Positions 1-23,190 of a stretch of 64,000 nt of DNA are shown here, piece by piece; the stretch's first letter is position 1, and every line of letters begins with the position of its first letter. A model generated the notes under the pieces. That model saw only the letters and a list, made by a program, of their open reading frames with translations. It was not told where the DNA came from and did not search any database. The DNA is taken from the NCBI GenBank assembly GCA_007375535.1, contig VMEM01000005.1, forward strand, positions 7,469-71,468, written 5' to 3'. This DNA is from Parcubacteria group bacterium LiPW_41. Lineage in GTDB: Bacteria > Patescibacteriota > Minisyncoccia > UBA6257 > GWB1-50-10. Both the position numbers and the translations under genes were made by a program.

Positions 1-18
1 CCATTTACTACCTCCTTT

Positions 19-411
19 TTATAAATCTTCTTCGAGACAGAGAAAATCATGCAATGCCCAGATTTTTTTCCCTTCACGTTCTAGTGTTATGAATTCGTCG
101 TGTTCTTCATCTTTTAAGAATTCTTCAGTCTTTAAAAACTCTCCTATTTCATTTTCTATCACATCAGGAATATCAGAGAGTTCAAAAGAAATAAGTTTAC
201 AATCGAAAACACGCGGATCTCCAAACGCAACGGTTATCATAGAACCAATTGGTGTTGTTGTCGGAATGTTTTTAGAAAGCATTGAGCACCCTGTGTGATT
301 TTTTGAAAAATCGGGGAGTGGGTCTTGTGAGATTAATACTGTAGCTCCAAAGAGCACTGGGCTTGTTATTTCATTCCCGTTGATGTCATAAAAATAATAT
401 TTTTCATTCAT
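19..411 (-). CDS. Small-protein paralog family member D (subfamily 1-like, divergent). Shares YYFYD..VL..P...F....GC core with 8 other copies in the window.
   Basis: ORF 130 aa; motif alignment to copies at 11574, 14783 and 15248. RBS GGAGGT 6 nt upstream (revcomp of catttactacctcc). The same RBS-start string recurs at 1..15, implying another copy just left of the window. Confidence 0.55.
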   Translation of the reverse strand: MNEKYYFYDINGNEITSPVLFGATVLISQDPLPDFSKNHTGCSMLSKNIPTTTPIGSMITVAFGDPRVFDCKLISFELSDIPDVIENEIGEFLKTEEFLKDEEHDEFITLEREGKKIWALHDFLCLEEDL

Positions 412-3614: not shown

Positions 3615-3666
3615 CGAGGGTTTTTATTTTTAGCAAATTATACAAGGCTTTCGTTATAATTAGGGT

Positions 3667-5675: not shown

Positions 5676-5856
5676 TGTTTAGTGACTAGAGCTTAGCTCT
5701 AAAGTCGATTTCCACGAAGATGAGTTTTTCTTTGGGTTTCTTTTCTTTGATTAATTATTTATTGCGAATTGAAAATTTTTCCCCTCTCCTTATTTAAAAT
5801 TGGCCTAATCTCCTGTTGTAGGTTGTTTGTTGTAGGTTGTTGGTTATACTTAAAAT

Positions 5857-6300: not shown

Positions 6301-6421
6301 CTATCAAACAAACCAAGCCCCAAACGGGGCATTTTTGTTGCTAAACCTCAATTATTTCACTATTGCAAAATATAGTAATGCATGGTATAATATATTCACT
6401 TAACAATTGAAGAGGAAGACA

Positions 6422-6805
6422 GTGAAAAAAGGGATAGTTGTTACCGCAAAAAATATAGCTACAGTTTGTGGCCATATTAAAAAAGTAATTAAGAACAAAG
6501 ATAGCCTTTTTGTGAGAAGTGCAAACACAAGCAACTTTCAACAAGCAAAAAAATTGCTTTCAAGAGCGGGAAAAAACGGGAGAGCATTTTTTTTGGATGG
6601 AAGATGTGCTGCTTCTATCGGAGAATATCTTGACTCACACATTGAAATAGTAAAAACTCGACGTCATCAATGTTTACGCTTCGGTCGTAATGAAGATTTT
6701 CAAATAATCAACATCGGCGATAAGGTGTTTATTGATAACGATAAGGTTTTTATTTCTTGGGCACTCGGTCGTTATGCGTCCAAAAAAATTGCCTGCGTTT
6801 CATAA
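6422..6805 (+). CDS. KKGIVVT..GDKVFID small-protein paralog 1 (likely GTG start).
   Basis: Homologous to ORF at 7234 (KKGIVVT.KN... G[DN]KVFID). Driven by TGgTATAAT cassette at 6383. Confidence 0.5.
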   Translation: MKKGIVVTAKNIATVCGHIKKVIKNKDSLFVRSANTSNFQQAKKLLSRAGKNGRAFFLDGRCAASIGEYLDSHIEIVKTRRHQCLRFGRNEDFQIINIGDKVFIDNDKVFISWALGRYASKKIACVS

Positions 6806-6948
6806 TTTAACCCTCTGCTTTATGCGGAGGGGATTTTTTTCTCTTTTTAATTAAAATTTGAAACTTAAAATTTAAAATTTCAATACTTGTAAAAGTGTTG
6901 AATCTGTGGTATTTTGCGTACATCATTAAAAACTAATTTGAGGTAGTT

Positions 6949-7233: not shown

Positions 7234-7638
7234 ATGAAAAAGGGAATTGTTGTTACAGAAAAAAATATGATGACGATTTACGATCGTCTAAAAAAGGTAG
7301 TTGAGAAAAAGAAATTCTTCGTGGGAAGAAGTTTCTATACTCGTAGCTTAAAAGTTGTTCAAAAGGTTGCGCCACTGGTGTGGGGATTGAATAAAAAAAG
7401 TTCAACGCCGTTGTGCAAAACTTCACACGCTATGTTTGGCGTTGCGGGTATCTGCTGTGACGGTTCGCGCATTTGGCTTAATCGTCCATATGATTCCGGG
7501 TACTTCTATATTCAGACTGGAAACAAAGTGTTTATTGATCCAATAGGAAAAATCTACATTGAACGAACGGATTTCATGCTTCGCGGAAGAGAAAAGTTCA
7601 TTCAGTTGGTGCAAGAGCAAAATAATTGCAAAATCTAA
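7234..7638 (+). CDS. KKGIVVT..GNKVFID small-protein paralog 2.
   Basis: Homologous to 6422 ORF; RBS AGGAG upstream. Confidence 0.5.
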   Translation: MKKGIVVTEKNMMTIYDRLKKVVEKKKFFVGRSFYTRSLKVVQKVAPLVWGLNKKSSTPLCKTSHAMFGVAGICCDGSRIWLNRPYDSGYFYIQTGNKVFIDPIGKIYIERTDFMLRGREKFIQLVQEQNNCKI

Positions 7639-7905: not shown

Positions 7906-7936
7906 CATTTCTTGACTTTTGTTGTATAATGTTTCA

Positions 7937-8273
7937 GAAGTATGCGAAGTGACAGCACGTCACTCGAAAGAGTGATTTGGGTGAGGAAAGTCCGGACACT
8001 CTGTCTCTTTTTGAGACAATCGTAGCGGGTAACTCCCGTCGTCCGCGAGAACCGAGGTGCGAACAGTGACGCCGGCGGCGAAAGCCAATGGGGGTCGTCT
8101 CAGACCTAATTCCGTATAGAGACTTAGAAAACGGAAGTGAAACGGCCAAATCCTTACGAGAGTGCAAAGTCGTGCTCTTTGAGCAATCAAAGAGAGTGCT
8201 GCTTGAGCCTGAGAGTAATTGATGGCCCAGATAAATTGTCACATAAACAGAATCCGGCTTATCGCATGCTTCA
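7937..8273 (+). ncRNA. rnpB: RNase P RNA (bacterial type A).
   Basis: GAGGAAAGTCCGGAC (P4 5' strand) and ACAGAATCCGGCTTA (P4 3' strand) present. 5' GAAGTATGCGAAG pairs with 3' ATCGCATGCTTC as P1. TATAAT 7 nt upstream. Confidence 0.8.
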
Positions 8274-8343
8274 CAAAATTGTATTTAGTATTGAGTAGAA
8301 AGTATTTCGTATTGTATACTTCCTTGGTACATAATATGTATTT

Positions 8344-8416
8344 GCCAATGTAGCTCAGCTGGTAGAGCAACGCTTTCGTAAAGCGTGGGTCGGAGGTTCA
8401 AATCCTCTCATTGGCT
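8344..8416 (+). tRNA. tRNA-Thr (anticodon CGU).
   Basis: Manual cloverleaf: acceptor GCCAATG/CATTGGC, D GCTC/GAGC, anticodon stem ACGCT/AGCGT with loop TTCGTAA, T arm GGAGG-TTCAAAT-CCTCT. Confidence 0.85.
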
Positions 8417-9062: not shown

Positions 9063-9482
9063 ATGGTGATGAAGAAACCATTTTACGCCTATACACACAT
9101 GAATTGTGCACTAAGCGAGAAGCAGGGGAATAGTTTTTGGGATATTGCTGCGATTTTAAGTGTTCCGCTTTCCCATTTCAAAAAAACGGCTGGGTGTAGT
9201 AAGGGAAACGCAATCCATATCCTTGGAGTTTCCGATATTGGAAAATATTTTCAAATTAAGATTCTCGACCCGGTTCAAATCGGTGTTGGAAAATTGTTGG
9301 GCTTTAATTTTGATGTAATTCCAGATTCAGAATTCAGAAATGCACTTCAGAAATATCAGAGCTATCTTGATAAGTTTGTTATTGCAGTATTTTTGGTTAA
9401 GAAAAGAAGGAAGGAAGTTATAGTAGTGGTAAGGCTTAATAATTGTGATGTAACCCCAATTAAAAAACGGAGAAAAAGATGA
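9063..9482 (+). CDS. Small-protein paralog family member I (subfamily 2, basic KKRRKR C-terminal tail).
   Basis: Core motifs AAILSVPLSHF..GCS, GKYFQIKILDP..G..LGFNFDVIP; C-terminus CDVTPIKKRRKR. RBS AAAGGAG. Confidence 0.6.
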   Translation: MVMKKPFYAYTHMNCALSEKQGNSFWDIAAILSVPLSHFKKTAGCSKGNAIHILGVSDIGKYFQIKILDPVQIGVGKLLGFNFDVIPDSEFRNALQKYQSYLDKFVIAVFLVKKRRKEVIVVVRLNNCDVTPIKKRRKR

Positions 9483-9943
9483 AAAAAGAAAAATTCTTTA
9501 TGTATGATCATAAAGGAAAACCAGCAAATTTTGTTTTCTCTCCAACTCCACAAATCATACTCTCAATACAACTTTCTCGTTTTATACCAAGATGTGGAAA
9601 CGTAATGGGTGCAGGGAAACTTCTCAAAAAGAGTCAGATTGAGAAAAAGTTTCGCGTAAATACTGTTGGAGGAAAAGATTTGGGCGTTTGTGTATTTAAG
9701 GGTTTTGGATTTGATGCAATTCCCAAAAATACATTTAAAAAAGCACTTCTTGAGTGTGGACATAACAACATTTCTGATTCTCAACTAGAAAATCCTTCGG
9801 AAGAACTTCAACGTGATTTTGAGAAAAGAGCAGAAAAATATCATGATTTACTTGGAGAAAAATTTCTTGTATTTGAAAAAACAGGAAGAGTTCCTTGTAC
9901 AATCATCATAAATTCAGAAGCGTGCGATGCAGTTCCAATTTAG
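9479..9943 (+). CDS. Small-protein paralog family member H (subfamily 2). Start overlaps stop of member I (ATGA).
   Basis: Motifs ILSIQLSRF..CG, EKKFRVNTV.G..G...GFGFDAIP, C-terminal CDAVPI. Confidence 0.6.
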   Translation: MKKEKFFMYDHKGKPANFVFSPTPQIILSIQLSRFIPRCGNVMGAGKLLKKSQIEKKFRVNTVGGKDLGVCVFKGFGFDAIPKNTFKKALLECGHNNISDSQLENPSEELQRDFEKRAEKYHDLLGEKFLVFEKTGRVPCTIIINSEACDAVPI

Positions 9944-9949
9944 TATTTA

Positions 9950-10006
9950 AACCCCCAATCGGGGGTCTTTTTTATCCCGCACTTTTTATTAAAAGGTGCG
10001 GGATTC
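9950..10006 (+). terminator. Tandem terminator hairpins (ccccc-aatc-ggggg-tctttttt, then atcccgcac...gtgcgggat).
   Basis: Two consecutive GC stems after paralog H. Confidence 0.6.
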
Positions 10007-10066
10007 GAAATTAAGATTTATTGTCCCAGTCTTTCTCAAACATAAAGCGTTGGCTATAATACTTCT

Positions 10067-11554
10067 GTGGAGCATAAAAAAATATTAATCATTGGCGCTG
10101 GTCCTGGTGGTTTGTCATCCGCAATGCAACTTGCACATAAAGGATTCCAAGTTGATGTATTCGAAAAACAACCATCTCCAGGTGGGAGAACCTCAGAAAT
10201 AAAAGTAGGTGACTTCAAATTTGATGTCGGACCTACTTTTTTTATGATGAAACACGTTATCGATCGTGTTTTTGGAAACGTGGGGAGAAAGCCCGAGGAC
10301 TATATTTCGTTTGTTCGTTTGTCGCCAATGTATCGTCTGATGTTGCCAGATAATAGAACCATTGATGCGTTTGAGGACAGGGAGCAAATGCGAGCACAGC
10401 TAGAAAAAACCTTTCCGGGCGATGGAAATGGAATTGATTTATTTTATGAACGAGAGACAAAACGGTATGCTCGTTTGATGCCGATTCTCGAACGGAATAA
10501 CAATTCAATGCGTGATATTTTTCGTTTAGAATTCTTTAAAGCAATTCCATACTTTGCTATAGGGAGATCACTTTTTGATGAAATGGGAAGATATTTTAAT
10601 GCAGAATTTGCTCGACTCTCTTTCACTTTCCAATCAAAATATCTTGGAATGTCCCCATGGAAATGTCCGGGTGCATTTGGTTTGGTTCCTTTTATAGAGC
10701 ATTCCGAGGGTGTGTTTCATGTCAAAGGAGGGTTAAATAAAATTTCAGAAGGAATGGCTCGAGCAGCCGAAGAAGACGGGGCTAGGTTTCACTACAACAC
10801 AAGTGTTAAAAAAATAATTGTTAAAGATGGTAAAGCAATAGGAATACAAACAGAGGAAGGAGAGGAATTCTTTGGGGATGAGGTGATTGTGAACGCAGAT
10901 TTTGGATATGCGATGGAACACCTGTTCGAATCAAGTGATCTAAAGAAATACACGCCAAAGAAATTGGAGAAGAAAGGAATTTCTTGTTCAATCTTTATGT
11001 TGTATGCAGGTATGAAAACAACATATCCGTTGGAGCATAATACAATCGTGTTTGCAAAAGACTACAAGAAAAATGTTGATGATGTATTTTCGGGAAACCT
11101 TTCGGGTGATAATATCTCGTTTTATATTCGAAATACTTCTGAGACAGATCCAGATGATGCACCAAAAGGAAAAAGTGCTCTATATATTTTAGTTCCCGTT
11201 CCAAATAAACGAGCAAATATCAATTGGAAAACAGAGGCACAGAATGTTCGTAATGCAGTCATTCATCAGATTGAGGAACGTCTTGGATTTAAAGATTTTT
11301 CTTCAATGATTGAAGTTGAACGTGTTATTACTCCAGATGAGTGGGAAGGTGAATATAACGTATATAGAGGTGCTGTCTTTAATCTCGCACACAATCTTGG
11401 GCAGATGTTGTGGTTTCGTCCACATAATAAATTTGAGGACGTAGATAATTGTTATCTTGTTGGTGGGGGAACGCACCCAGGAAGTGGTCTTCCAACCATT
11501 TTCCAATCTGGCGTCATCGCCGCTGATCTAATTTCCAAAAAATACAACAAATAA
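10067..11554 (+). CDS. FAD-dependent oxidoreductase, phytoene desaturase (CrtI) family.
   Basis: N-terminal dinucleotide-binding ILIIGAGPGGLS...FEKQPSPGGR and C-terminal GGGTHPGSGLP. GTG start 6 nt after TATAAT (leaderless). Confidence 0.7.
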   Translation: MEHKKILIIGAGPGGLSSAMQLAHKGFQVDVFEKQPSPGGRTSEIKVGDFKFDVGPTFFMMKHVIDRVFGNVGRKPEDYISFVRLSPMYRLMLPDNRTIDAFEDREQMRAQLEKTFPGDGNGIDLFYERETKRYARLMPILERNNNSMRDIFRLEFFKAIPYFAIGRSLFDEMGRYFNAEFARLSFTFQSKYLGMSPWKCPGAFGLVPFIEHSEGVFHVKGGLNKISEGMARAAEEDGARFHYNTSVKKIIVKDGKAIGIQTEEGEEFFGDEVIVNADFGYAMEHLFESSDLKKYTPKKLEKKGISCSIFMLYAGMKTTYPLEHNTIVFAKDYKKNVDDVFSGNLSGDNISFYIRNTSETDPDDAPKGKSALYILVPVPNKRANINWKTEAQNVRNAVIHQIEERLGFKDFSSMIEVERVITPDEWEGEYNVYRGAVFNLAHNLGQMLWFRPHNKFEDVDNCYLVGGGTHPGSGLPTIFQSGVIAADLISKKYNK

Positions 11555-11573
11555 AAAATCCCCCAAAAGGGGA

Positions 11574-11963
11574 TTAAAATAGTGGCTCAACGTCGAGATT
11601 TTTATTTGCCTCGACAGCAAGAATTTCTCCGGTTTCTACAATCTTAAAAAATGCAAAGCACGTCAAATAAAGGAGGTTGGTTTCGTCACCTTGAAATTCT
11701 TTTTTCATTTCTTCATCTCCAACTACATCAATACCGAAGCCCAGGAGTTCACAATCGCCAATTTCATATGGGTCGAATATTGAAACTTTAAACCTCTTTC
11801 CAATATTTTGATTGGTGAGTAGGTCTCGATTTTTTCCTGACGAACATCCATCAACGTGGGGAAACTGTGAGAGTGGGGTGGTGAGCATTGCATTGAAAAC
11901 GTCACCTTTTGTCATGGAAATTCCAGAGTTGGAGTAAAAATATAATCGTTTCTTTTCAGACAC
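11574..11963 (-). CDS. Small-protein paralog family member B (subfamily 1).
   Basis: LYFYSNSG...AMLTTPLSQFPHVDGCSS...GKRFKVSIFDP...LGFGIDVV...DVEPLF. TTGACT-17-CATAAT promoter plus AAAGGAGG RBS upstream. Confidence 0.65.
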   Translation of the reverse strand: MSEKKRLYFYSNSGISMTKGDVFNAMLTTPLSQFPHVDGCSSGKNRDLLTNQNIGKRFKVSIFDPYEIGDCELLGFGIDVVGDEEMKKEFQGDETNLLYLTCFAFFKIVETGEILAVEANKNLDVEPLF

Positions 11964-12167
11964 TTTGTCCTCCTTTTATTTTTAATGATTATGTATATTA
12001 TGCTCAATATTCATAAAAAAGTCAATTAAATGCCTATTTCGATACTGAACCCCTGTTTTAATCTTCACCCTCCTAATGCGTGGATTTTACCTTTAACGCA
12101 AGGTGGTTGTCATGTAAATGGTTTTGCGATATAAAAAACATATCATTAACAAACCAAGAGGCTGACT

Positions 12168-12605
12168 ATGCCCACATTTGATAGAAATTTATTATGTGCT
12201 GGTTCAGTACGTTTTCAGATGTCCCCAAGTTTTATTGAACATATATTCTGGAGCGCACCAATGTTTGTTGAGTATTATGATGGAGAGATCGGCACTCGTC
12301 GACTTACGAGCGTAATGACCAATGGAGATGTCTTATCTGAAATCGGACCGCAAAATGTTTTTGATGTATCTGATGTTTTAAAAATAATTTTTTCTATTTC
12401 ACAATTTTCTCCCGAAGATGTTGCCGAAAATGGAAGTTTTATACAGAAAAATTCTTGTTATCTCATTTTTGCGCAAGATAATAAGCGTCGAAAAATGTTC
12501 ATCATAACCATAGAACGAGACGAGCAAAATGTCTGGAATCTTGGATATGAGGATGAGGCACATCTTGCCTGGAATGAAGGCGTTCGCATAATTACGAAAT
12601 ATTAA
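12168..12605 (+). CDS. Hypothetical protein (145 aa).
   Basis: ORF with RBS AAGAGG; terminator tcccgc...gcggga after stop. Confidence 0.45.
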   Translation: MPTFDRNLLCAGSVRFQMSPSFIEHIFWSAPMFVEYYDGEIGTRRLTSVMTNGDVLSEIGPQNVFDVSDVLKIIFSISQFSPEDVAENGSFIQKNSCYLIFAQDNKRRKMFIITIERDEQNVWNLGYEDEAHLAWNEGVRIITKY

Positions 12606-12837
12606 TCCCGCAATTCTATAATTCAGCGGGATTTTTTATCCCCATTTTTTTCTCCTATCTGTCATTCCCGCGAAGGTGGGAATCCAGTATTTCTTGTTGT
12701 GATTTTGGTATTTTGAATTTGCAGTGCCGTTCCATAGCTTTAGCGAAGGATGGTTTAGAGTTTAGTAATTAGGATTTAGAGTTTTAATTTTGAACTTTGC
12801 ATTTTGCCCTTTGCACTAATTGTCGTATTATTACCTT

Positions 12838-13758
12838 ATGAAGCACACATTGATTTTTGTTCTCGTGTTAATCATTCTCACACTGTTAGTTCTTGGTGCG
12901 GGGATAATAAAGTTTAATACAACAAATAGCGATATATACAACCAAAACGGAACACAAATAAACGTCCATGACGGAACGTATCAAATTAATGGACAATCAA
13001 TAACACTTAAAAATGGAATTTCAGAGGTCGAGGTAGCACCTGGGTCTGCATCAAAAATAATTACTCGATATTTTGGAAATGACGTCGAGGCTGATCTTAA
13101 TAACGATGGAGTTAAGGATCGTGTGTTCCTTATTACTCAAGAGACGGGAGGAAGTGGAACCTTCTTCTATGTGGTTGCTCGCGTAAATATTCCAAGTGGA
13201 AGCGTTGGCTCAGATGCGGTGTTTTTGGGAGATCGCATTGCCCCACAATCAACAAATATGGGAAAGGGGAATGTTGTAGTAGTAAATTATGCTGAGAGAA
13301 AACAAGGCGAGGCATTTACCGTGCAACCATCCGAAGGAAAAAGTAAGTGGCTGTTGTTGGATCCAAAAACAATGCAATTTGGTGAGGTTGCTCAAAATTT
13401 TGAGGGAGAGGCAAATCCAGCAATGATGACACTTGATATGAAACCATGGAGATGGGTAAAAACAACATATAACAATGATACTGAAATGAAACCAAAAATA
13501 GACAGATTTGTTCTCGCATTTAAAAATGACAAAACCTTTTCTGCTTCAACGGACTGTAATGGTGTGGGTGGTGAATACACAGTGACAGGAAATAAAATTT
13601 CATTTACTAGAATGTTTTCTACTCAAATGTATTGTGAGGGATCGCAAGAAAGTGAGTTCGCAAAAATGTTGGAAGAGACACAAAGCTTTCTCTTTACCTC
13701 AAAAGGTGAGCTCATTCTTGAATTAAAATTCGACTCCGGCTCTGTCATTTTTAATTAA
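12838..13758 (+). CDS. Membrane-anchored protein with C-terminal META/HslJ-like domain.
   Basis: N-terminal TM (LIFVLVLIILTLLVLGAGII). C-terminal DCNGVGGEYTVTGNKISFTRMFSTQMYCEG matches META-domain pattern. ATG 6 nt after TATTAT. Confidence 0.55.
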   Translation: MKHTLIFVLVLIILTLLVLGAGIIKFNTTNSDIYNQNGTQINVHDGTYQINGQSITLKNGISEVEVAPGSASKIITRYFGNDVEADLNNDGVKDRVFLITQETGGSGTFFYVVARVNIPSGSVGSDAVFLGDRIAPQSTNMGKGNVVVVNYAERKQGEAFTVQPSEGKSKWLLLDPKTMQFGEVAQNFEGEANPAMMTLDMKPWRWVKTTYNNDTEMKPKIDRFVLAFKNDKTFSASTDCNGVGGEYTVTGNKISFTRMFSTQMYCEGSQESEFAKMLEETQSFLFTSKGELILELKFDSGSVIFN

Positions 13759-14163
13759 ATGTTGTATCTAAAAAACAGTAATATAATTTGGAAGCATATA
13801 GTTGTGATTCCAATTCTCACTCTCTTATCAATACCACTAATTATTTTAGATGTTTGTGTTGAACTATATCATCGAATCTGTTTTCCATTGTGCAAACTTC
13901 CTTATATTAAAAGAAGTGCGCACATAAAAATTATCGATAGGGGAAAACTACAATATCTTTCATTTTGGCAAAAGCTTTACTGTATGTATTGCGGATATGG
14001 AAATGGAGTGATTCGATATTGGAAGGAGATTGCTTCTGTAACCGAAGGATATTGGTGTGGAATTAAACACAAAAAATCTGAAGGATTTATTGATCAAGAT
14101 CACCAAAAAGATTTTGCAGAATATGGAAATCAAAATGATTTTGTCCAAAAATATAAAAAGTAA
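13759..14163 (+). CDS. Hypothetical membrane protein (134 aa).
   Basis: ORF abutting previous stop; hydrophobic N-terminus. Confidence 0.4.
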   Translation: MLYLKNSNIIWKHIVVIPILTLLSIPLIILDVCVELYHRICFPLCKLPYIKRSAHIKIIDRGKLQYLSFWQKLYCMYCGYGNGVIRYWKEIASVTEGYWCGIKHKKSEGFIDQDHQKDFAEYGNQNDFVQKYKK

Positions 14164-14235
14164 GTTTAAATACCATAAAAATCCTCCGTCTCCGGAGGAT
14201 TTTTATTTCGTTGATTAATTGTTTATTGATTGAAA

Positions 14236-14338
14236 ATTTTTCTCCCTCTCCTCATTCAAAATTCGAAATTCGTCATTCGAAATTATTCTCAATTCTCTCT
14301 TCTCTCATTTAAAACTTGAAATTTAGAATTTAAAATTA
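14236..14338. repeat. Mosaic intergenic repeat block (M1 plus M4 'aaacttgaaatttagaatttaaaatt').
   Basis: M1 copy about 95% identical to 15685..15745. Confidence 0.5.
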
Positions 14339-14344
14339 TTCCTA

Positions 14345-14660
14345 CTATGCCTGCACTATTTTATGTATCTCCGGAACTTCTTTTGCCTTTCTGTTATCAA
14401 ATTTAATAGTCAGAAACGTTCCAACAAATGCACCGATCGCCGCAGGTAATAGATACCAGTTGTTTCCAATATATTCAATTGCCACAAGTCCTCCAGCAAT
14501 AATGATGACTGCAGATAGGGTAGAAGCAGACAAGGTTTTTCCATGAGTTACTCTACGTATATAAATTGCCCATAATGTATCGGAAAATGCCGTAACCAAA
14601 AATACCACCAATGCCTTTGCTGGGCTCACTTCCCAAAACATCGCAATAATCTGTTCCATG
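14345..14660 (-). CDS. Integral membrane protein (105 aa from MEQIIAMFW).
   Basis: TTGACT-17-CATAAT promoter on minus strand, followed 6 nt later by ATG (leaderless); about 3-4 TM helices. Confidence 0.5.
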
Positions 14661-14737
14661 CCCATATTATGCTTTATAAACACAAAAAAGTCAATTAAAT
14701 CCTCGCTTTTTCAAATCTTGCACTTTCTCTATTCTCA

Positions 14738-14782
14738 TGGTATAATATTTTCATATTTAACAATGATAAATAGGAGGCCAGA
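14738..14782 (+). promoter_or_regulatory. Conserved promoter/5'UTR cassette (TGgTATAAT-ATTTTCATATTTAACAATGATAAAT-AGGAGGCC) driving paralog A.
   Basis: Near-identical 45-nt cassette also at 18139..18183, 15204..15247, 6383..6421 and 20546..20589. Confidence 0.55.
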
Positions 14783-15148
14783 GTGGCTGAAAGAAAGTTG
14801 TATTTTTATGATTCAAATGGTAATGAGACGAATTCAATTGTTTTTGAAGCAGTCCTTACCACCCCACTTTCACAGTTTTCTCATATCGATGGATGTTCTT
14901 CTTATAAAAATCTAGAACTACTTATTCCTCAGAATGTTGGGAAAAAGTTTAAACTTTCGATTCTCGATCCATTCGAAGTCGGCGAAGTTACATATCTCGG
15001 CGATGGCTTGGATGCTATACCAGATGAATCAATCCGTAGTGTATTGTCCAATATTAGAGAGGGCTACATTGATGATTGGTTTTATGTATTCCAACTTAAC
15101 GATGAATTAGTTATTTCTGCCAGCTTCGATGTCGAACCTCTCTTTTAA
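14783..15148 (+). CDS. Small-protein paralog family member A (subfamily 1), GTG start.
   Basis: LYFYDSNGNE..AVLTTPLSQFSHIDGCSS..GKKFKLSILDPFEVGE..LGDGLDAIPD..DVEPLF. Promoter-leader cassette at 14738. Confidence 0.7.
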   Translation: MAERKLYFYDSNGNETNSIVFEAVLTTPLSQFSHIDGCSSYKNLELLIPQNVGKKFKLSILDPFEVGEVTYLGDGLDAIPDESIRSVLSNIREGYIDDWFYVFQLNDELVISASFDVEPLF

Positions 15149-15203
15149 TCTTTGCCCCCACATAAGTGGGGGATTTTTATTACTATTGCAATTTCTCTCT
15201 ATG

Positions 15204-15247
15204 CGTGGTACAATATTTTCACATTTAACAACAAATAGGAGGCCTAA
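15204..15247 (+). promoter_or_regulatory. Same cassette (variant) driving paralog C.
   Basis: tggtacaatattttcacatttaacaacaaataggaggcc. Confidence 0.5.
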
Positions 15248-15634
15248 ATGGCTGAAGAAAAAAAGATCTACATATATGACGCAAGAAATACTTTGTATTC
15301 TCATAAAAGTACTTGTGCGTGTCCTGCGGCAGTTCTAACTGTTGCAATTGAATCATTCGATAGGACACCGGGTTGTTCAAGTCGTATTGGGCGAGAATTT
15401 TTAACCGAAGAAAATGTTGGGAAAAATTTTGACATTTCAATTCTTGACCCAGTTCTTGTTGGTGCAGTTGAGTTTGTTGGAATAGGTCAAAAGTACATTC
15501 CTGCATCCATTTATAATAATGTTATAAATTCTTTCCCTAAATTCTTTGACTATGGTGATTTTGCCGTATTCAAGCAGGGTGATGAATACATCATTGTTGA
15601 TACTGATTATCTTGATGTAAAACCTCTGTTTTAA
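15248..15634 (+). CDS. Small-protein paralog family member C (subfamily 1).
   Basis: IYIYD..AAVLTVAIESF..PGCSS..GKNFDISILDP..VGIGQKYIP..DVKPLF. Same cassette at 15204. Confidence 0.7.
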   Translation: MAEEKKIYIYDARNTLYSHKSTCACPAAVLTVAIESFDRTPGCSSRIGREFLTEENVGKNFDISILDPVLVGAVEFVGIGQKYIPASIYNNVINSFPKFFDYGDFAVFKQGDEYIIVDTDYLDVKPLF

Positions 15635-15747
15635 TTATTACCCCCGCTCTGCGGGGCTTTTTTATCCTCTGTATTTGTTTAAAATTTCTCTCCATCTCCT
15701 CATTCAAAATTCGAAATTCGTCATTCGAAATTATTCTCAATTCTCCC

Positions 15748-15782
15748 TTTATACTTTCTACGTTCTACTCTATACTATCCCT
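15748..15782 (+). promoter_or_regulatory. Leaderless promoter element of obg (TATACT -10, 6 nt, then ATG).
   Basis: 31-nt string tttatactttctacgttctactctatactat is identical to the one at 18746..18776 upstream of the RF2-like gene. Confidence 0.45.
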
Positions 15783-16754
15783 ATGTTAATCGACGACGTC
15801 ATAATCTCAGTACATGCAGGAAATGGCGGAAAAGGTTGTGTAGCATTCAATAAAAATGTGGGTAGTTTGGGTCCCGTCGGAGGAAGTGGCGGCCGAGGTG
15901 GTAACGTCTATTTTGAAGGAATTGCCGATTTAAATGCACTCCAACAGTTTAGAAATCAAAAGGTATTTAAAGCACAAAATGGTGAAGACGGAAAACCTCA
16001 ATTCAATGATGGTCATACCGGAGAAGATCTAACTATCAAAGTTCCCGTAGGGACAATTATTCATAATTCAGATATTGGTATGGATATGGAGATTTTAAAA
16101 ATTGGAGATCGCGTTGCGGTTGCAACAGGAGGAAAGGGAGGAAAAGGAAATTTTCATTTTCGTTCTTCGACAAATACGACGCCGACATATGCGCAAGCAG
16201 GACTTCCGGGGCAGTCATACAAACTTCGTTTGGAATTAAAGATGATTGCAGATGTTGGATTTATTGGTCTTCCAAATGCGGGCAAATCAAGTTTGTTAAA
16301 TGAACTAACAAAAGCTTCGGCAAAAGTTGCAAACTATCCATTCACCACTCTCGAACCAAACCTTGGTGTGTTTTTCGATCTTATTCTTGCAGACATTCCT
16401 GGACTCATTGAGGGCGCCTCAAGTGGAAAGGGGCTTGGTGCAAAGTTTTTGCGTCATGTAGAACGAACAAATACATTGTTTCATTTAATTTCTGCAGAAT
16501 CAGATGACGTAGTACGTGATTATGAAGTTATTCGTAATGAACTTGTTTCACACAACCCAGAACTTGCAGATAAAAAAGAGTATGTCTTTTTGAGTAAGTG
16601 TGATGTGGAGGATGACAAAGAAACAAAAAAGAAACTCACTGCATTAAAGAAAAGGAAGATTGTGGCTCAACCACTTTCAATTCTCGTTCCTGAAACCCTT
16701 GAAGTAGTAAAGAAAATTTTGGTTGAGATTCAAGATCAAAAACACAAAAAATAG
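15783..16754 (+). CDS. obg: GTPase Obg/CgtA.
   Basis: Obg fold N-terminus (VHAGNGGKGCVAF...GGSGGRGGNV) and G domain (GLPNAGKSSLLN, DIPGLIEGA). ATG 6 nt after TATACT. The longer track ORF from 15675 has a non-homologous extension. Confidence 0.85.
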   Translation: MLIDDVIISVHAGNGGKGCVAFNKNVGSLGPVGGSGGRGGNVYFEGIADLNALQQFRNQKVFKAQNGEDGKPQFNDGHTGEDLTIKVPVGTIIHNSDIGMDMEILKIGDRVAVATGGKGGKGNFHFRSSTNTTPTYAQAGLPGQSYKLRLELKMIADVGFIGLPNAGKSSLLNELTKASAKVANYPFTTLEPNLGVFFDLILADIPGLIEGASSGKGLGAKFLRHVERTNTLFHLISAESDDVVRDYEVIRNELVSHNPELADKKEYVFLSKCDVEDDKETKKKLTALKKRKIVAQPLSILVPETLEVVKKILVEIQDQKHKK

Positions 16755-16814
16755 TAGATGGTATAAGGTAGTAAGTATTACGTATAACTCACAAAAAATT
16801 GTTATAATAAATAC

Positions 16815-17456
16815 ATGAAGCTAAAACCATTTTTAACGTTTTTAGTCATAACGTTGTGTTTTGTTGTATTTTTACCAAACACATTTGCCTCAGGTGACTA
16901 CAAATTAAAGGTCTCAAAAGGTTGGAATCTTTTGACTTCGTTTGATACATTCGAGTTAGAAAGAGACGCAAAATACATTTTTCACTATTTTCCGTTATTA
17001 AATAAGTACGTACCAGGAAAACCAGATTTATCAGAAGGAGAGAAAAAGAAATTACTTGATGAATATCAAAGTAAGGGGGTGTCACTCGCTGATTTGCAAA
17101 ATTCATATTTACAAATTACAACATCCCGTTGGTATTATTTCACTGAGAATAAGGAATACAATATAAATATTTCTTCAGAATCTCCAAATCAGTGGAAGCT
17201 CTTTCAAGGTTGGAACTTCAAGTCAGTAACTGAATCAATGGTGGGAAAATCAATGTACGATTTTAAGGGGGATTGTAATATAACAAAATATTATGGGTTT
17301 GATGCAACGAATCAAAAATGGATTCCAATTGAAGGTCTTGATCGAAAATTCAAAAAGGATGAGCAAGGTGTTGGTTTTTTACTTAAGGTAGAAAAAAACT
17401 GTAAGCTCGGAGAATTCGTCGAAGTATCTCCAGAAGTTCCTGCATTACCAAATTAA
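16815..17456 (+). CDS. Hypothetical secreted protein (213 aa; ends ...PEVPALPN).
   Basis: Signal peptide-like N-terminus FLTFLVITLCFVVFLPNTFA. Confidence 0.55.
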   Translation: MKLKPFLTFLVITLCFVVFLPNTFASGDYKLKVSKGWNLLTSFDTFELERDAKYIFHYFPLLNKYVPGKPDLSEGEKKKLLDEYQSKGVSLADLQNSYLQITTSRWYYFTENKEYNINISSESPNQWKLFQGWNFKSVTESMVGKSMYDFKGDCNITKYYGFDATNQKWIPIEGLDRKFKKDEQGVGFLLKVEKNCKLGEFVEVSPEVPALPN

Positions 17457-17469
17457 CTTTTAACACAAT

Positions 17470-17649
17470 ATGTCTAAAACAAAAATTATCATATCTATTC
17501 TCGTAATTATTGTGGTATTAATAGCAATATATGCACTTCTTTCGTCACCATTACCAAAGGGTGTTGATAGTATTCTTCCATCTCCAACACAAGAAACGGT
17601 GGAAGTAAACGGAGAAACTATTCCGACTCCACCAGCATTACCAAATTAA
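17470..17649 (+). CDS. Possible small membrane protein (59 aa; ends ...PPALPN).
   Basis: ATG 14 nt after previous stop; single TM; shares C-terminal PALPN with the upstream protein. Below ORF-track threshold. Confidence 0.35.
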   Translation: MSKTKIIISILVIIVVLIAIYALLSSPLPKGVDSILPSPTQETVEVNGETIPTPPALPN

Positions 17650-17653
17650 AAAA

Positions 17654-17680
17654 ATCCCCGCACAAGCGGGGATTAAGTTA
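17654..17680. terminator. Bidirectional terminator (atccccgc-acaa-gcggggat).
   Basis: Between small ORF (+) and paralog F (-). Confidence 0.6.
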
Positions 17681-18064
17681 TTTTTTCTTTGGTGCAATAG
17701 GAGTTACATCACAATCTTCTGGGTCAACGACAAATATACATGCGTTTTTTCCTGTTTTTTTGAAAACCAGGTCCTTGTTTTCAATTAAGTACTTCTTTTG
17801 AAGTGAATCCTTGAACTTTGATTTTGGGACAGCATCGGGTCCAAAGCCGATAAATGTGCAGATACCCATCACAACTGGATCAAGAATTTCTACTTTGAAT
17901 TTTTTTCCTTTACTACTCTTTTTTAATAGCTTTCCTGTTCCTATGGTACACCCATAAGTTCTTTTGAATCTTTGAATGGGAATACTAATTGCCGCCTTTG
18001 TAAGACCTGGGGGATGGAAAACTCGTTCGTTTGTCGTGTTGTAAAAGAAACAATATACCACCAC
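17678..18064 (-). CDS. Small-protein paralog family member F (subfamily 2, basic tail APKKK).
   Basis: AAISIPIQRF..YGC, GKKFKVEILDP..G..IGFGPDAVP, CDVTPIAPKKK. AGGAGGC RBS. Confidence 0.65.
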   Translation of the reverse strand: MVVYCFFYNTTNERVFHPPGLTKAAISIPIQRFKRTYGCTIGTGKLLKKSSKGKKFKVEILDPVVMGICTFIGFGPDAVPKSKFKDSLQKKYLIENKDLVFKKTGKNACIFVVDPEDCDVTPIAPKKK

Positions 18065-18138
18065 TGCCTCCTAGTTTGTTGTAAAAGATATCCATAGAAT
18101 ATCACTGATTTTGACATATTGCAATACTTTTGTAATCA

Positions 18139-18183
18139 TGGTATAATATTTCCATATTTAACAATGATAAATAGGAGGCCGTA
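18139..18183 (+). promoter_or_regulatory. Same promoter/5'UTR cassette driving paralog E.
   Basis: catggtataatatttccatatttaacaatgataaataggaggcc. Confidence 0.55.
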
Positions 18184-18579
18184 ATGCCAAGAAAAAGACT
18201 TTACTTATACAATGCCTATAACAAAGAGTGGTTTATAGGTACTGGTGTGCGCTCGGGGGCACTTCTAACTTTTCCAATTGGTTCGTTGTATCGAACACAA
18301 GGGTGTGTTTACACTGACTCTAAGACTAAAAATCTTTTAGTCGAGGAAAATATCGGAAAGAAATTCAATATAGAATTTCTTGATCCTGTACGCGCAGAAA
18401 GTGTTAAATTTTGCGGAAGAGTATCATTAAGATTAAATTCATGTCTTCCAAAATATATGTATGCGCACATGCAAGAGAATAAGTTTTTTTACTTTTTTAA
18501 TTCATTCTTTGTTTTCAAAAAAGGAAGAGAATATATTGTGGTAAATACCAGACACATAGAGGCAAAGTTGGCGCATTAA
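18184..18579 (+). CDS. Small-protein paralog family member E (subfamily 1-like).
   Basis: LYLYNAYN..ALLTFPIGSL..QGC..GKKFNIEFLDP; cassette at 18139; divergent from member F. Confidence 0.65.
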   Translation: MPRKRLYLYNAYNKEWFIGTGVRSGALLTFPIGSLYRTQGCVYTDSKTKNLLVEENIGKKFNIEFLDPVRAESVKFCGRVSLRLNSCLPKYMYAHMQENKFFYFFNSFFVFKKGREYIVVNTRHIEAKLAH

Positions 18580-18745
18580 ATTTATTAAGACAACTTCCCC
18601 GTACGTACGGGGATTTTTTTATCTTTTATATACATTTTAGATTTTCTTTATTTATTTAAAAATTAAGAATTACAAAATTAAAAATTGTCTTTTTCTTTCA
18701 TTTGAAACTTGAAATTTGTAAATCGAAATTGATTTCATCCAATAC

Positions 18746-18780
18746 TTTATACTTTCTACGTTCTACTCTATACTATTTTT
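18746..18780 (+). promoter_or_regulatory. Leaderless promoter element of RF2-like gene (identical 31-nt element).
   Basis: See 15748..15782; -10 TATACT, then 6 nt, then GTG. Confidence 0.45.
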
Positions 18781-19467
18781 GTGCAGATAAACGAAAACTC
18801 AGTAACTCTCTCTGTTCTCGCTGGTGCAGGAGGGGACGACGCAAAAGATTGGGCAGAAATGCTTCTCAAGATGTACAAAAAAGACGCGGAACGCCGTGGC
18901 TGGAAATGTACAACCATTGATGACGAAATTATTGCGATAAAGGGAGCAGGTGCATATTCTCGACTTCAAAAAGAATCGGGCGTGCATCGATTGGTTCGCA
19001 TCTCTCCTTTTGATTCAAAAAAACTCCGCCATACCTCGTTTGCATTAGTTGAAGTACTTCCCGAAATTCCAGAAGTTGAATCTCGTAACATTCAGATACC
19101 AGAAAAAGATTTAAAAGTTGAATTTACTCGTGCAGGCGGTCCAGGCGGACAAAATGTAAATAAGGTAGAAACTGCAGTCCGAATGGTGCATCTTCCAACA
19201 GGTGTGGTAACTGCATCACGCGAAGAACGCTCTCAGGCAGCAAATCGTGACAGGGCACTTAATATGATGAAAGCAAAGTTGGTGCAACTTGCAGAGGCAC
19301 AACACACTAAGGATATCGCAAGCTTGAAAGTAAAAGTAAAACCAGAATGGGGACACGAAATCCGCTCATATGTCTTGCATCCATACAAACAGGTAAAAGA
19401 TCATAAAACAGGAAATAAAATAACAAAGGTAGACGAATTCCTCGCCGGAAATATTGATCTTCTCTAA
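18781..19467 (+). CDS. prfB: Peptide chain release factor 2-like protein lacking N-terminal domain 1 (domains 2-4 only).
   Basis: SPF tripeptide (RISPFDS) and GGQ ([12 protein letters not shown]); aligns to E. coli RF2 from about residue 120. GTG start 6 nt after TATACT; no upstream in-frame coding and no CUU-UGA frameshift site. Confidence 0.7.
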
Positions 19468-19557
19468 TTTTCGATTTTATATTTTTCCCTTTTTTGATAT
19501 TTGAATTTGTTTAGAATTTAGTGTTTCGATATTAGAGTTTTTACCGTCGTAGATTGT

Positions 19558-20025
19558 ATGTTGTATAGTTTATTTATGTACCCTATTGAATCATGTAATG
19601 AAGCATCAAATAAAATAGTACCCCCATCTCCAGAAGATATTTTGATATATAGGAATTCATTCTATTTTCAGTATCCTAAACTTTCATTTTTCGTTAGTCT
19701 TCTTTCCTTTTTCCCATTTGGTCTTTTTCTTCGTTCAATGATCATGAATGAAGAATATATGAAAACGTGTCCAGAACAAAAAAGAAATCTTTACACATTT
19801 TTTACTTCAGCGCTTTATACATTTACTGTATTCTTTTTTATTGCGGTGATATTTATGATTGTGTCTTTTTCATATAGTAATACATGGGTTGTCTCAGCAT
19901 TAGGTGCAATATGCTCATATATTTGTTATCTCTTATTTGGATTTCTTTATCGCTATCACAACAAGATTTTATTTGTGAAGCATCCCGCAGTAGCTCGAGC
20001 AAATGGTAGAGAGATAGAAAATTGA
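19558..20025 (+). CDS. Hypothetical membrane protein (155 aa).
   Basis: Multiple hydrophobic segments; terminator at 20028. Confidence 0.45.
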   Translation: MLYSLFMYPIESCNEASNKIVPPSPEDILIYRNSFYFQYPKLSFFVSLLSFFPFGLFLRSMIMNEEYMKTCPEQKRNLYTFFTSALYTFTVFFFIAVIFMIVSFSYSNTWVVSALGAICSYICYLLFGFLYRYHNKILFVKHPAVARANGREIEN

Positions 20026-20027
20026 AA

Positions 20028-20050
20028 ATCCCCGCATAAGCGGGGATTGA
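20028..20050. terminator. Bidirectional terminator (atccccgc-ataa-gcggggat).
   Basis: Between 19558 gene (+) and paralog G (-). Confidence 0.6.
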
Positions 20051-20051
20051 A

Positions 20052-20435
20052 TTATCTCTTTCTCTTTTTTATCAGGGTTAACTTACAGTGGTAGGGATCA
20101 ACAACAAAAATGCACTTGTTTTTTCCTTTAATTTTTTCGAACACAAGAAAGCTATGCTCGATTTGAGCAGGTGAATTTCGAAGCTGATTCTTGAATTTTG
20201 ATTCAGGAATTTGATCAAAGCCAACTCCTCGAAGTACACATCTACCCATCTCAACTGGGTCAAGTATGCGAACATTATATACTTTTCCAATCTTAAGCTT
20301 CATTCTAACAAATGAAGCACATCCAGGTGTTCTTTTAAATCTACTCAGTGGAATAGTTAACACTGCGGAAGGGAAGACGCGTGATTGTAGTGACAGTCTT
20401 CTGTTATTTAAAAATGAATATGCATAAAGCGCCAT
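20052..20435 (-). CDS. Small-protein paralog family member G (subfamily 2, basic tail KKRKR).
   Basis: AVLTIPLSRFKRTPGC, GKVYNVRILDP..G..GVGFDQIP, ...LIKKRKR. RBS AGGAGGCC. Confidence 0.65.
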   Translation of the reverse strand: MALYAYSFLNNRRLSLQSRVFPSAVLTIPLSRFKRTPGCASFVRMKLKIGKVYNVRILDPVEMGRCVLRGVGFDQIPESKFKNQLRNSPAQIEHSFLVFEKIKGKNKCIFVVDPYHCKLTLIKKRKR

Positions 20436-20589: not shown

Positions 20590-21027
20590 ATGAGAATCTT
20601 TGGATTAACCGCAAACTGGTTCAAGGCCCCAATCATTGTTGTGGTGGCTGAAAGTTTTCAAGCAGCACTCGAATTAAGTAAAGGGGCACTCAATAATGCC
20701 TTGTTGCCGTGGAGTGAGCCGAATGTAAAAGTTCTCTGGTCGTTTGAAACAACTTATTCATTGCCGACGGTAATGGAAATTCTCAAACCTGACTCAGACT
20801 CTTCAACTCGCATCTTGAAATGCATTGAACATAATTTTGTCCAATCTGAAAAAATCGGCGCAGGACCGAATGCGCGAATTTTTGTCTATTTAAACAGAAT
20901 GGAAATGTTTCCATATCTGTGTTCGTTCACACGGGATGGCTGGGTCGTTGATCCATCAACTGAGATGGACGAAGATGTAAGAAACGAAATTAAAAAATTT
21001 CTCAACGACAAATATCCAATCGGTTAA
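20590..21027 (+). CDS. Hypothetical protein (145 aa), first gene of a two-gene operon.
   Basis: TGgTATAAT..TTAAC..AATAGGAG cassette upstream; 10-nt gap to next ORF. Confidence 0.55.
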   Translation: MRIFGLTANWFKAPIIVVVAESFQAALELSKGALNNALLPWSEPNVKVLWSFETTYSLPTVMEILKPDSDSSTRILKCIEHNFVQSEKIGAGPNARIFVYLNRMEMFPYLCSFTRDGWVVDPSTEMDEDVRNEIKKFLNDKYPIG

Positions 21028-21036
21028 GGAGACAAA

Positions 21037-21720
21037 ATGAAATTAAAAGATTTCACTTACGAAATTTACCTTGCGATCTTGGATATTTATATCGAAGTTT
21101 GCGGTGGTCAATATTTGGCTAATTCGTTAAAAAACGAAACCAAATACAATGATCTTATTTCTGAGTTTGAATCTCGCTCGTCAATCGAACGAAGATTTGG
21201 ATCAAACCTTTGTAGTTTTTCGAAGCTCTGGATTCGCAGGGATTGGGATGACACACTAACCTTCTCATTTGATTCAAAACTTACCTCTGCAGAACGAAGA
21301 CGTCTTGCTGTGCGAGAAAAAGAAATGACGGAAAAATTCAATGCTCGAATTTCCGAATTTCTCACGACTCGTGATTTGTTTCAGAAGATTGAACAAGTAG
21401 ACAGGCATCAATTTAGCTGTAAAAACTATTACATGTTTGGTTTCAACTATAACGGTGGAACACCAGACGAAGTAATTGTTGAAAAACCAACATCAATTGA
21501 TGATAATACAATTCTTTTTCACTTTGATTATGGACACAAATCCCTTAGTGAATATATTAAAAAGGAAAATATCATTGCTGTTGGCGATGAAGACGGCGCT
21601 TTTGAAGTTGCTGGCTGGAACGGTAGATATTCCGTTCTGAACAAGCAAGAATTTCTTAAGCTTATTCAATCTGGCGCACTTGAAATCAAGAAGTGTCACG
21701 GTTTTGTAGAAGTTGATTGA
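21037..21720 (+). CDS. Hypothetical protein (227 aa).
   Basis: RBS AAGGAGA; terminator cccccgcaattgcgggg after stop. Confidence 0.55.
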   Translation: MKLKDFTYEIYLAILDIYIEVCGGQYLANSLKNETKYNDLISEFESRSSIERRFGSNLCSFSKLWIRRDWDDTLTFSFDSKLTSAERRRLAVREKEMTEKFNARISEFLTTRDLFQKIEQVDRHQFSCKNYYMFGFNYNGGTPDEVIVEKPTSIDDNTILFHFDYGHKSLSEYIKKENIIAVGDEDGAFEVAGWNGRYSVLNKQEFLKLIQSGALEIKKCHGFVEVD

Positions 21721-21817
21721 TAATTTTAACCCCCGCAATTGCGGGGTGTTTTTTTCTTCCATTTTTTAATTGATTAATTGGATATTGATTGAAAATTGCA
21801 AAATTATAATTGTAAAT

Positions 21818-21918
21818 TCTCCCTCTATTCAAAATCCGAAATTCGTCATTCTTAATTACTTTCTAGCTTTTGCGTTTCACTTTTGATGTTTGCATTTTGA
21901 ACTTTGCACTTCTTGTCG
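21818..21918. repeat. Mosaic intergenic repeat block (M1 plus M3) upstream of recQ.
   Basis: Contains ctccctctattcaaaatccgaaattcgtcattc then ttttgcgtttcacttttgatgtttgcattttgaactttgcac. Confidence 0.5.
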
Positions 21919-23154: not shown

Positions 23155-23190
23155 ATTCAATTGAAACTTGAAATTTGTAAATTGAAATTT

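Follow-up and report, generated by a model that had tools for sequence, protein, structure and literature searches.

A lineage-restricted and rapidly diversifying family of small proteins, with a predicted fold new to solved structures, expanded in a Parcubacteria genome

Ten diverged paralogs within 21 kb of one contig

A contig of Parcubacteria group bacterium LiPW_41 (VMEM01000005.1) encodes a family of small proteins that is new, as is its predicted fold when judged against solved structures. Ten diverged paralogs are packed into 21 kb, with nine open reading frames (ORFs) in the 64,000-nucleotide (nt) stretch analysed here (the window, contig positions 7,469 to 71,468) and the tenth just upstream of it. 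The results below show that the family is real and maintained by selection, that it looks expressed and that it is diversifying rapidly. All nine ORFs that an earlier note on this DNA had proposed as members are present at the coordinates and on the strands given there, and we name them by their first window coordinate. The first, c19 (19..411, minus strand; 130 amino acids (aa), acidic with an isoelectric point (pI) of 4.3), represents a divergent subfamily with an FGDPR motif and three conserved cysteines. It forms a tandem, with a 14-nt spacer, with the tenth copy, whose existence the note had predicted from the first bases of the window. This copy is a 129-aa ORF (L002:10408-10797, NCBI LiPW41_665) with 44% identity to c19; its start codon falls at 1..4 of the window (minus strand, ATG at 4..2), the remaining gene lies upstream, and the AGGAGGTAGTAA string that precedes its ATG is the same as in the other copies. 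The basic c9063 (9063..9482, plus strand; 139 aa, or 137 aa from the NCBI start at 9069; pI 9.9, KKRRKR tail) is the first gene of a tandem pair kept in other genomes. The second gene, c9479 (9479..9943, plus strand; 154 aa), has an insertion of about 30 aa and does overlap c9063 by an ATGA. The acidic c11574 (11574..11963, minus strand; 129 aa, pI 4.7) adjoins a CrtI-like gene. Two further acidic copies follow, c14783 (14783..15148, plus strand; 121 aa, pI 4.2) and c15248 (15248..15634, plus strand; 128 aa, pI 4.7), the latter directly upstream of obg. The basic c17678 (17678..18064, minus strand; 128 aa, pI 9.7, PKKK tail), which starts one codon later in the NCBI annotation, is divergently oriented to c18184 (18184..18579, plus strand; 131 aa, pI 9.7), a copy with a 4-aa insertion past the hairpin described below and located upstream of an RF2-like gene. 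The most basic copy is c20052 (20052..20435, minus strand; 127 aa, pI 10.5, KKRKR tail). The neighbours are those that had been recognised before, namely, an amine-oxidase/CrtI-like flavoprotein, Obg and a short RF2-like protein.

The alignments yield the consensus Y.Y ... A.LT.PLS.F..T.GC.S ... IGK.F.V.ILDPV..G.C...GFG.D.IP ... VF.K ... CD..P. The collinear core that was said to be common to all nine copies is seen here, except that c9479 has degenerate motifs (GN instead of GC, EKKF, TVGG) and has lost the GC, GKKF and LDP motifs. Among the 727 six-frame ORFs of the window, a profile of the nine copies recovers exactly those nine (E-values of 1e-34 to 2e-49), with the next-best ORF at an E-value of 0.36 and no match between 22 and 64 kb. 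Since such a self-search is circular, it was rerun with each copy left out in turn, and every copy was recovered by the hidden Markov model (HMM) profile of the others, with E-values of 1.2e-11 to 5.5e-30. The nine ORFs are true paralogs. Pairwise BLASTP identities among the copies are 22–45%, and c19 and the tenth copy form a divergent subfamily that is tied to the remaining copies mainly via the profile. The expansion is indeed unusual: in the 74 kb examined, only one other paralog pair was found at E<1e-6 (two glycosyltransferases).

Conserved scaffold and hypervariable segments

Across 40 members, the positions with at least 78% conservation (c17678 numbering) are Y8, G38, C39, G53, K54, D62, P63, G67, G73, P80, F101 and C118. 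Most of these are turn and core residues (Gly, Pro, Phe, Tyr), to which D62, K54, C39 and C118 are added. A catalytic site is unlikely because C39 and K54 are substituted in several members and no polar residue is invariant across the family; judging from the alignment, the proteins are probably not enzymes. Mean pairwise identity reaches 0.37 in residues 24–39 and 53–80, and is 0.14–0.21 in residues 1–23, 40–52 and 81–98, which are hypervariable and also accommodate the indels.

Three cysteines are semi-conserved (C39 in 82%, C69 in 60% and C118 in 77% of the members). In the c19 subfamily, two cysteines are invariant and the third, C125, is found in nine of ten members. The last cysteine is often followed by an aspartate. 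These residues could point to a metal- or redox-active role of a cysteine triad in these small proteins, which we consider very unlikely. Indeed, c14783 has one cysteine in total, c15248 retains of the triad the GC-motif cysteine alone, several other members lack C39, and neither a histidine nor a fourth ligand is conserved. Besides, cysteines would in general be expected to occur often in the cores of proteins from anaerobes.

Kyte-Doolittle hydropathy scans detect neither a transmembrane-like segment nor an N-terminal hydrophobic core (the maximum 19-residue mean is 1.66, within the beta-hairpin). This agrees with the earlier statement that the proteins have no transmembrane helix or signal peptide, the latter part of which was assessed by hydropathy and not by a dedicated predictor.

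Predicted fold and comparison with known families

Searches of Pfam-A 2025, NCBIfam 20.0, PHROGs v4 and PADLOC 2.0 with up to 42 members returned no significant match. The best E-values, 0.006–0.09, are scattered single hits, and no library family was matched by more than one member. Profile searches against PDB sequences gave one hit at an E-value of 1.5 for profile A1 and none at E<=10 for profile A3, and Foldseek found no match among solved structures (E>=0.49). The family and fold thus could not be recognised in any of these collections, just as they had not been recognised by eye, and the remark that the system appears undescribed is consistent with a literature search on the isolate name and on paralog families of the Candidate Phyla Radiation (CPR), which retrieved nothing describing the family.

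AlphaFold2 was run with the family alignment on one acidic and one basic paralog. The models of c14783 (m79861af81739; predicted local distance difference test score (pLDDT) of 89.6 and predicted template modelling score (pTM) of 0.83) and of c17678 (mfc871304d752; pLDDT 94.6, pTM 0.87) have the same order of elements: two short N-terminal strands, a GC-motif loop region with short helices, a long beta-hairpin that corresponds to GKKF-x-V-x-ILDP-x3-G, an alpha-helix and a three-stranded meander. The acidic and basic paralogs are confidently predicted to have one common fold. In the models, the C-terminal half seems to bear a generic likeness to SH3-like small barrels, and the domain as a whole appears to have no solved counterpart. 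The SH3-like superfold, exemplified by the BirA C-terminal domain (3rux_A), Hfq/Sm/Gemin6, Tudor, the SH3 domain of uL2 and RimP, has no sequence similarity to the family, and the likeness covers less than half of the family protein, which has about 50 additional residues at its N-terminus, comprising two strands and the conserved GC loop. In Sm proteins, the alpha-helix is N-terminal, whereas in the models of the family it lies between strands 4 and 5. Three known folds were considered and rejected. Sm/LSm/Hfq proteins are recognised by an N-terminal helix, five strands and the Sm1 and Sm2 motifs, and the family does not have this arrangement. For ASCH/PUA-like barrels, the combination of the PUA-like fold with the ASCH motif (GxKxxExR) is not found. 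The PanD-type pyruvoyl double-psi beta-barrel was suggested by the like length and a G-C/S motif, and the combination of its fold with a self-cleaving G|S site in conserved context is not found in the family. The hhalign probabilities against Hfq, PanD and the ASCH protein YqfB are at most 0.3% each. The novelty lies at the level of the protein family and, relative to solved structures, of its predicted fold.

Taxonomic distribution

A word-indexed search of 5.8 billion clusters identified 8 family proteins. A full HMMER pass over 1.84 billion representatives gave 44 hits, about 37 of which are real members (104–195 aa), counted as clusters at 50% identity. Iterated word-index searches with broader profiles (A5, A6) contributed one further member, and no protein from these searches carries a Pfam annotation. 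HMMER hits in giant proteins (P0013 of 5923 aa, P0035, P0037, P0038, P0042 and P0045) were discarded as spurious sums of weak matches to unrelated repeats. The five inspected contain apparent Calx-beta-type units, Bacteroidota-type 'GCDS..T.NLT' units or a low-complexity repeat, and P0037 (6310 aa, two matched stretches) is presumed to be similar. Ten clusters that were looked up have 1–2 members each, with 'hypothetical protein' from metagenome-assembled genomes of Candidatus Paceibacterota as the sole names, and every member whose source is named or whose context can be read is from Paceibacterota or a CPR-like contig. Pattern scans with a tighter alignment (A4) matched a single locus among 185,579 GTDB species representatives, a single one in the JGI metagenomes and no locus in IMG/VR; no tblastn match was obtained in phage or plasmid records.

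This contig has 10 copies in 21 kb, compared with 4 in 5.3 kb at locus L021, 3 in 11–20 kb at L012 and L015, and one in 20 kb at L007 and L018. The family can accordingly be described, as had been proposed, as a lineage-specific expansion: it is confined to a few Paceibacterota/Parcubacteria genomes, and a locus has 1–4 copies in the others but at least 10 in this one. About seven subfamilies are kept across genomes. Lineage-specific hypothetical protein families of CPR bacteria (Patescibacteria) have reportedly been described by Meheust et al. in 2019 (PMC6744442). Like these, the present family belongs to one CPR lineage, is named only 'hypothetical protein' and has no homologs outside the lineage. 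Unlike CPR-wide families, it is far rarer (about 37 clusters at 50% identity in 1.84 billion representatives), is locally expanded to at least 10 copies, or about 1% of genes as estimated from locus-tag numbers, and has a confidently predicted fold without a PDB counterpart. Such an estimated share of a very small genome spent on ten copies implies a function important to the lineage.

Two variants depart from the common length. P0028 and L021:2-574 (plus strand) have a conserved C-terminal extension of about 70 aa, which has no Pfam hit and provided no domain-fusion clues. P0048 has a hydrophobic N-terminal extension, which may anchor the protein in a membrane or result from a mis-called start.

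Divergence, turnover and synteny

Comparison with orthologs in related metagenomic contigs gives ratios of nonsynonymous to synonymous substitution rates (dN/dS) of 0.17 for c9063, 0.12 for c9479 and 0.19 for c19, versus 0.024 for the adjacent CrtI-like gene; the ratios indicate that the orthologs are under purifying selection. At L001, the CrtI-like protein is 99% identical to that of the window, c9479 is 86% identical and c9063 54–56%. At L015, Obg (91%), RF2 (94%), FtsE (95%) and FtsX (94%) are closely similar, whereas the best family copy is at most 37% identical to any window paralog, and at L012 the flanks are 72–94% identical and the family 27–42%. These comparisons indicate that the family diverges far faster than its housekeeping flanks. 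Such fast divergence, however, could also result from weak constraint on small accessory proteins.

The copy number differs as well. In the close relative L001, the slot of c11574 lacks the copy and contains an unrelated 181-aa ORF instead, and L004 lacks the tenth copy and has a c18184-like copy beside a c19-like one; the loci thus indicate that copies are gained and lost between close relatives. The slot polymorphism juxtaposes L001:6489-7034 (the 181-aa ORF, plus strand) and window positions 11555-12121 (c11574, minus strand), and the 181-aa ORF shares 33% identity with an ORF of 177 aa located at L002:13246-13779, upstream of the window. Other positions are stable. In at least six genomes (window, L008, L012/L013, L015/L016, L017 and L021), obg is directly preceded by a copy, a copy adjoins RF2 in the window, L012 and L015, and the c9063-type gene is followed by the c9479-type gene in the window, L001 and L021.

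Small, multi-copy genes, some of them in overlapping pairs, might be selfish or mobile elements, toxin–antitoxin modules, annotation artefacts or pseudogenes. We regard this explanation as highly improbable and already largely refuted. No inverted or direct flanking repeats, transposase or integrase were found around the copies, the phage, plasmid and viral collections gave no hits, and the slots are syntenic across genomes. Cargo of a mobile element was rejected for the want of terminal repeats and of phage, plasmid or IMG/VR hits, and for the conserved obg slot; by these observations the family is not mobile. A type II toxin–antitoxin module was likewise rejected: both genes of a pair are mutually homologous, monocistronic singletons are common and there is no hit to a toxin–antitoxin family. 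One sequence speaks for decay. In the family copy downstream of RF2 at L015 (5466-5977, minus strand), the N-terminal Y.Y motif is in another reading frame, which could reflect a frameshift, a pseudogene or a faulty assembly. By contrast, all ten copies of the contig are intact, which, together with the dN/dS values and pLDDT of 90–95, runs counter to the possibility, raised as a potential refutation in the earlier note, that most copies are pseudogenes.

Expression signals and transcription units

Every copy has an AGGAGG-type ribosome-binding site 5–8 nt ahead of its start. Promoter-like sites are found for four copies, of the TGnTATAAT type for c14783, c15248 and c18184, and TTGACT-17-CATAAT for c11574. 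The promoter and 5' untranslated region (UTR) of c14783 form a cassette (14707..14782, plus strand; TTGCAC...TGGTATAAT...AGGAGG), and similar cassettes, with 63–71% identity over 120 nt, precede c15248 (15175-15247) and c18184 (18108-18183); c17678 and c20052 have a 5' UTR string in common. Therefore, the duplications seem to have brought their own expression signals along. A GC-rich hairpin with a T-run follows seven of the nine window copies within a few bases: c9479 (9951-9966), c11574 (11575-11557, minus strand), c14783 (15155..15172, plus strand), c15248 (15642-15656), c17678 (17674-17653, minus strand), c18184 (18596-18613) and c20052 (20048-20027, minus strand). Most copies hence appear to be transcription units of their own, led by a Shine-Dalgarno sequence, with probable co-transcription of c9063 with c9479, which overlap, and of c19 with the tenth copy, given their short spacer. 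Intact ORFs, strong ribosome-binding sites, promoter-like sites and terminators, together with dN/dS of 0.12–0.19 and the high pLDDT, make it most likely that the copies are expressed and functional.

A functional coupling of the family to obg was considered and rejected. The hairpin after c15248 lies between this copy and obg, a promoter-like cassette of its own precedes obg at a position suited to leaderless transcription, and the adjacency, which is shared synteny in relatives, is lacking in the more distant L007, L009 and L018. That copies adjoin obg and RF2 reflects synteny conserved among close relatives and not operon coupling. Coupling to Fic was also rejected, since a Fic gene adjoins RF2 at L012 and L015, but not in the window.

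Surface charge and possible functions

Net charge across the family varies from -16 to +19. Four of the ten contig copies are acidic (pI 4.2–4.7), five are basic (pI 9.2–10.5) and the tenth copy is near neutral (pI 6.6). Several basic copies end in KKRRKR, KKRKR or PKKK tails, and within the c19-type subfamily the charge flips between -16, -15, 0, +5, +6 and +10. Basic residues at positions 3–4, 35 and 54 are conserved, including in acidic members.

The rigid scaffold, hypervariable segments, drifting charge, paralog arrays, some of them tandem and translationally coupled, and turnover lead us to favour, tentatively, the view that the paralogs are non-catalytic modules for binding or inhibition, similar to an immunity repertoire. 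The members would be lineage-restricted, small (about 120–155 aa), cytoplasmic, single-domain beta-barrel proteins that arose via repeated local duplication. A rigid conserved scaffold, made of the GC loop and the GKKF-x-V-x-ILDP-x3-G hairpin, would be surrounded by three hypervariable segments and freely drifting surface charge. Each paralog would bind a different fast-changing macromolecular partner and sequester or neutralise it stoichiometrically, so that the set would serve as an immunity- or inhibitor-like repertoire. Here we infer all three components, that is, action by binding, protein partners and a setting of biological conflict. The range and flips of charge would be easier to reconcile with protein-binding surfaces that change than with one fixed nucleic-acid ligand, and the family appears to have none of the features that would mark enzymes, membrane or secreted proteins, mobile elements or toxin–antitoxin modules. 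If true, a binding or immunity repertoire would offer a window onto the conflict and host-interaction biology of uncultured ultra-small bacteria.

The closest known parallel is in the polyimmunity and orphan-immunity arrays of polymorphic toxin systems, such as the SUKH/Imm families, reportedly described by Zhang, Iyer and Aravind in 2011–2012. Both consist of small cytoplasmic proteins encoded by diverged paralogs, in tandem or clustered, that evolve much faster than their flanks and differ in copy number between close relatives. The present family differs from polymorphic-toxin immunity proteins in that no locus has an adjoining toxin or delivery gene, there is no Pfam Imm/SUKH hit, the copies occupy conserved housekeeping slots, polybasic tails are present and orthologous subfamilies persist. 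The immunity-like array considered in the earlier note fits the very fast divergence and turnover, but no toxin gene adjoins any of about 20 loci, and the array is not demonstrated. A regulatory partner-switch family, mentioned there as another option, finds no support at all.

Several observations weigh against an immunity-like repertoire. No toxin, nuclease, secretion or defence gene adjoins any copy at about 20 loci in at least 8 genomes, where the neighbours are obg, RF2, RecQ, SWIB, CrtI-like, dnaE, rnhB and thioredoxin genes. Searches of PADLOC, PHROGs, phage and plasmid records and IMG/VR are all empty. The syntenic slots among housekeeping genes, such as that upstream of obg, are unlike defence or immunity islands. 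Strong basicity and poly-K/R tails at the C-terminus characterise about half of the members, a feature unusual among immunity proteins and typical of nucleic-acid binders. Finally, subfamilies, including the c9063-type/c9479-type pair, persist across genomes, and this persistence suggests stable differentiated roles, not an arms race.

The main rival is that the paralogs are small barrels associated with nucleic acids or ribonucleoproteins, like the SH3/Sm/Tudor-type binders Hfq, uL2, RimP and Sso7d. The basic paralogs would bind RNA or DNA via a conserved basic patch and the K/R tails, and the acidic ones would be their partners or antagonists. The five basic copies with their tails and the basic positions retained even in acidic members are in line with this, the strong ribosome-binding sites, promoter-like sites and terminators would suit proteins made in abundance, and genes of translation and replication are among the neighbours. 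We nevertheless think this rival doubtful. Four copies are strongly acidic, the charge flips inside orthologous subfamilies, and divergence as fast as this is atypical for proteins of the nucleoid or the ribosome or for RNA chaperones. Housekeeping neighbours would be nearly unavoidable in so reduced a genome, and terminators stand between the genes. The nucleic-acid- or ribosome-associated factor set envisaged in the earlier note is not demonstrated; if true, it would represent a new class of small-barrel nucleoid or RNA factors.

By analogy to the seven eukaryotic Sm paralogs or ESX pairs, the paralogs could also be subunits of homo- or hetero-oligomers, with acidic and basic paralogs or the tandem pairs forming mixed complexes and the expansion corresponding to subunit diversification. 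The coupled or tight pairs would fit such an arrangement: c9063/c9479, which overlap also in L001 and L021, c19 with the tenth copy at 14 nt, 3251-3655 with 3655-4047 in L017, and a pair in L009. So would the near balance of four acidic versus five basic copies in the window plus tenth copy and the maintenance of about seven subfamilies. We nonetheless deem oligomers of this kind quite unlikely. Several genomes (L007, L018) have a single copy per 20 kb examined, tandem pairs often carry the same charge (acidic/acidic or basic/basic), and a tandem layout is also a trivial result of duplication. The oligomer and metal models have less support than the binding modules. A broader and rather unlikely proposal is that the new small-protein fold is a modular, paralog-coded binding system of one Paceibacterota clade, with about seven subfamilies that have distinct partners. 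It would be either the self-contained conflict or immunity repertoire of an ultra-small episymbiont or an acidic/basic hetero-oligomer acting on RNA or DNA, as an analogue of the eukaryotic Sm paralogs.

Other features of the contig

Outside the family, the RNase P RNA (RF00010) was located at window positions 7937-8276 (plus strand) with 94 bits (E-value of 3.5e-29), below the Rfam gathering score of 100, and is therefore missed at default settings. Its conservation extends to L001 and L012, and a tRNA (8344-8416, plus strand) comes next. The listed ORF 7934-8242 (minus strand), which overlaps the RNase P RNA, is spurious. The ORFs 6407-6805 and 7234-7638 (both plus strand; 132 and 134 aa) have in common an N-terminal KKGIVVTxKN (BLASTP E-value of 3e-4 over 15 residues) and a G[DN]KVFID motif. 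The two may represent a second small paralog family and are both without a Pfam hit. The two-gene unit at 20590-21720 (plus strand) encodes proteins of 145 and 227 aa, also without a Pfam hit, the latter with a 60% identical ortholog in L015.

Twelve intergenic heptamer arrays are found between window positions 2034 and 23187, with about 4.3 units (approximately 30 nt) each, versus 0–1 arrays in shuffled sequences. They are located at 2034-2065, 5815-5845, 6851-6880, 12789-12817, 14254-14284, 14307-14337, 15702-15732, 15747-15776, 18656-18686, 18742-18774, 21788-21818 and 23159-23187, that is, all in the first 23 kb and mostly upstream of non-family genes. The unit sequences are many and varied (GTTTAGA, TTTGCAC, ATTCGAA, CTTTATA and others). 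Similar arrays occur in L001, L002, L012, L015 and L018, but not in L007 or L009. A link between the arrays and the paralogs was rejected, since the arrays precede non-family genes and nothing connects both.

The RF2-like release factor (18781-19467, plus strand) has 228 aa, comprising the C-terminal half of the PCRF domain and the RF-1 domain with the SPF and GGQ motifs, and the space upstream of the gene is too small for the missing N-terminal domain. Its orthologs in L012, L015 and L021 likewise have 228 aa, and a Fic gene adjoins in L012 and L015. A 32-nt cassette, CTTTATACTTTCTACGTTCTACTCTATACTAT (TTTATA-17-TATACT), is present at 15747-15782 and 18742-18780 and ends 4–6 nt before the ATG of obg at 15783 and the GTG of the RF2-like gene at 18781, with no Shine-Dalgarno sequence there. 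This placement suggests that the obg and RF2-like mRNAs are leaderless and transcribed from a common promoter type, unlike the paralog family, which uses mRNAs led by a Shine-Dalgarno sequence. Inverted copies of the cassette lie near 8275-8317 and 16747-16785.

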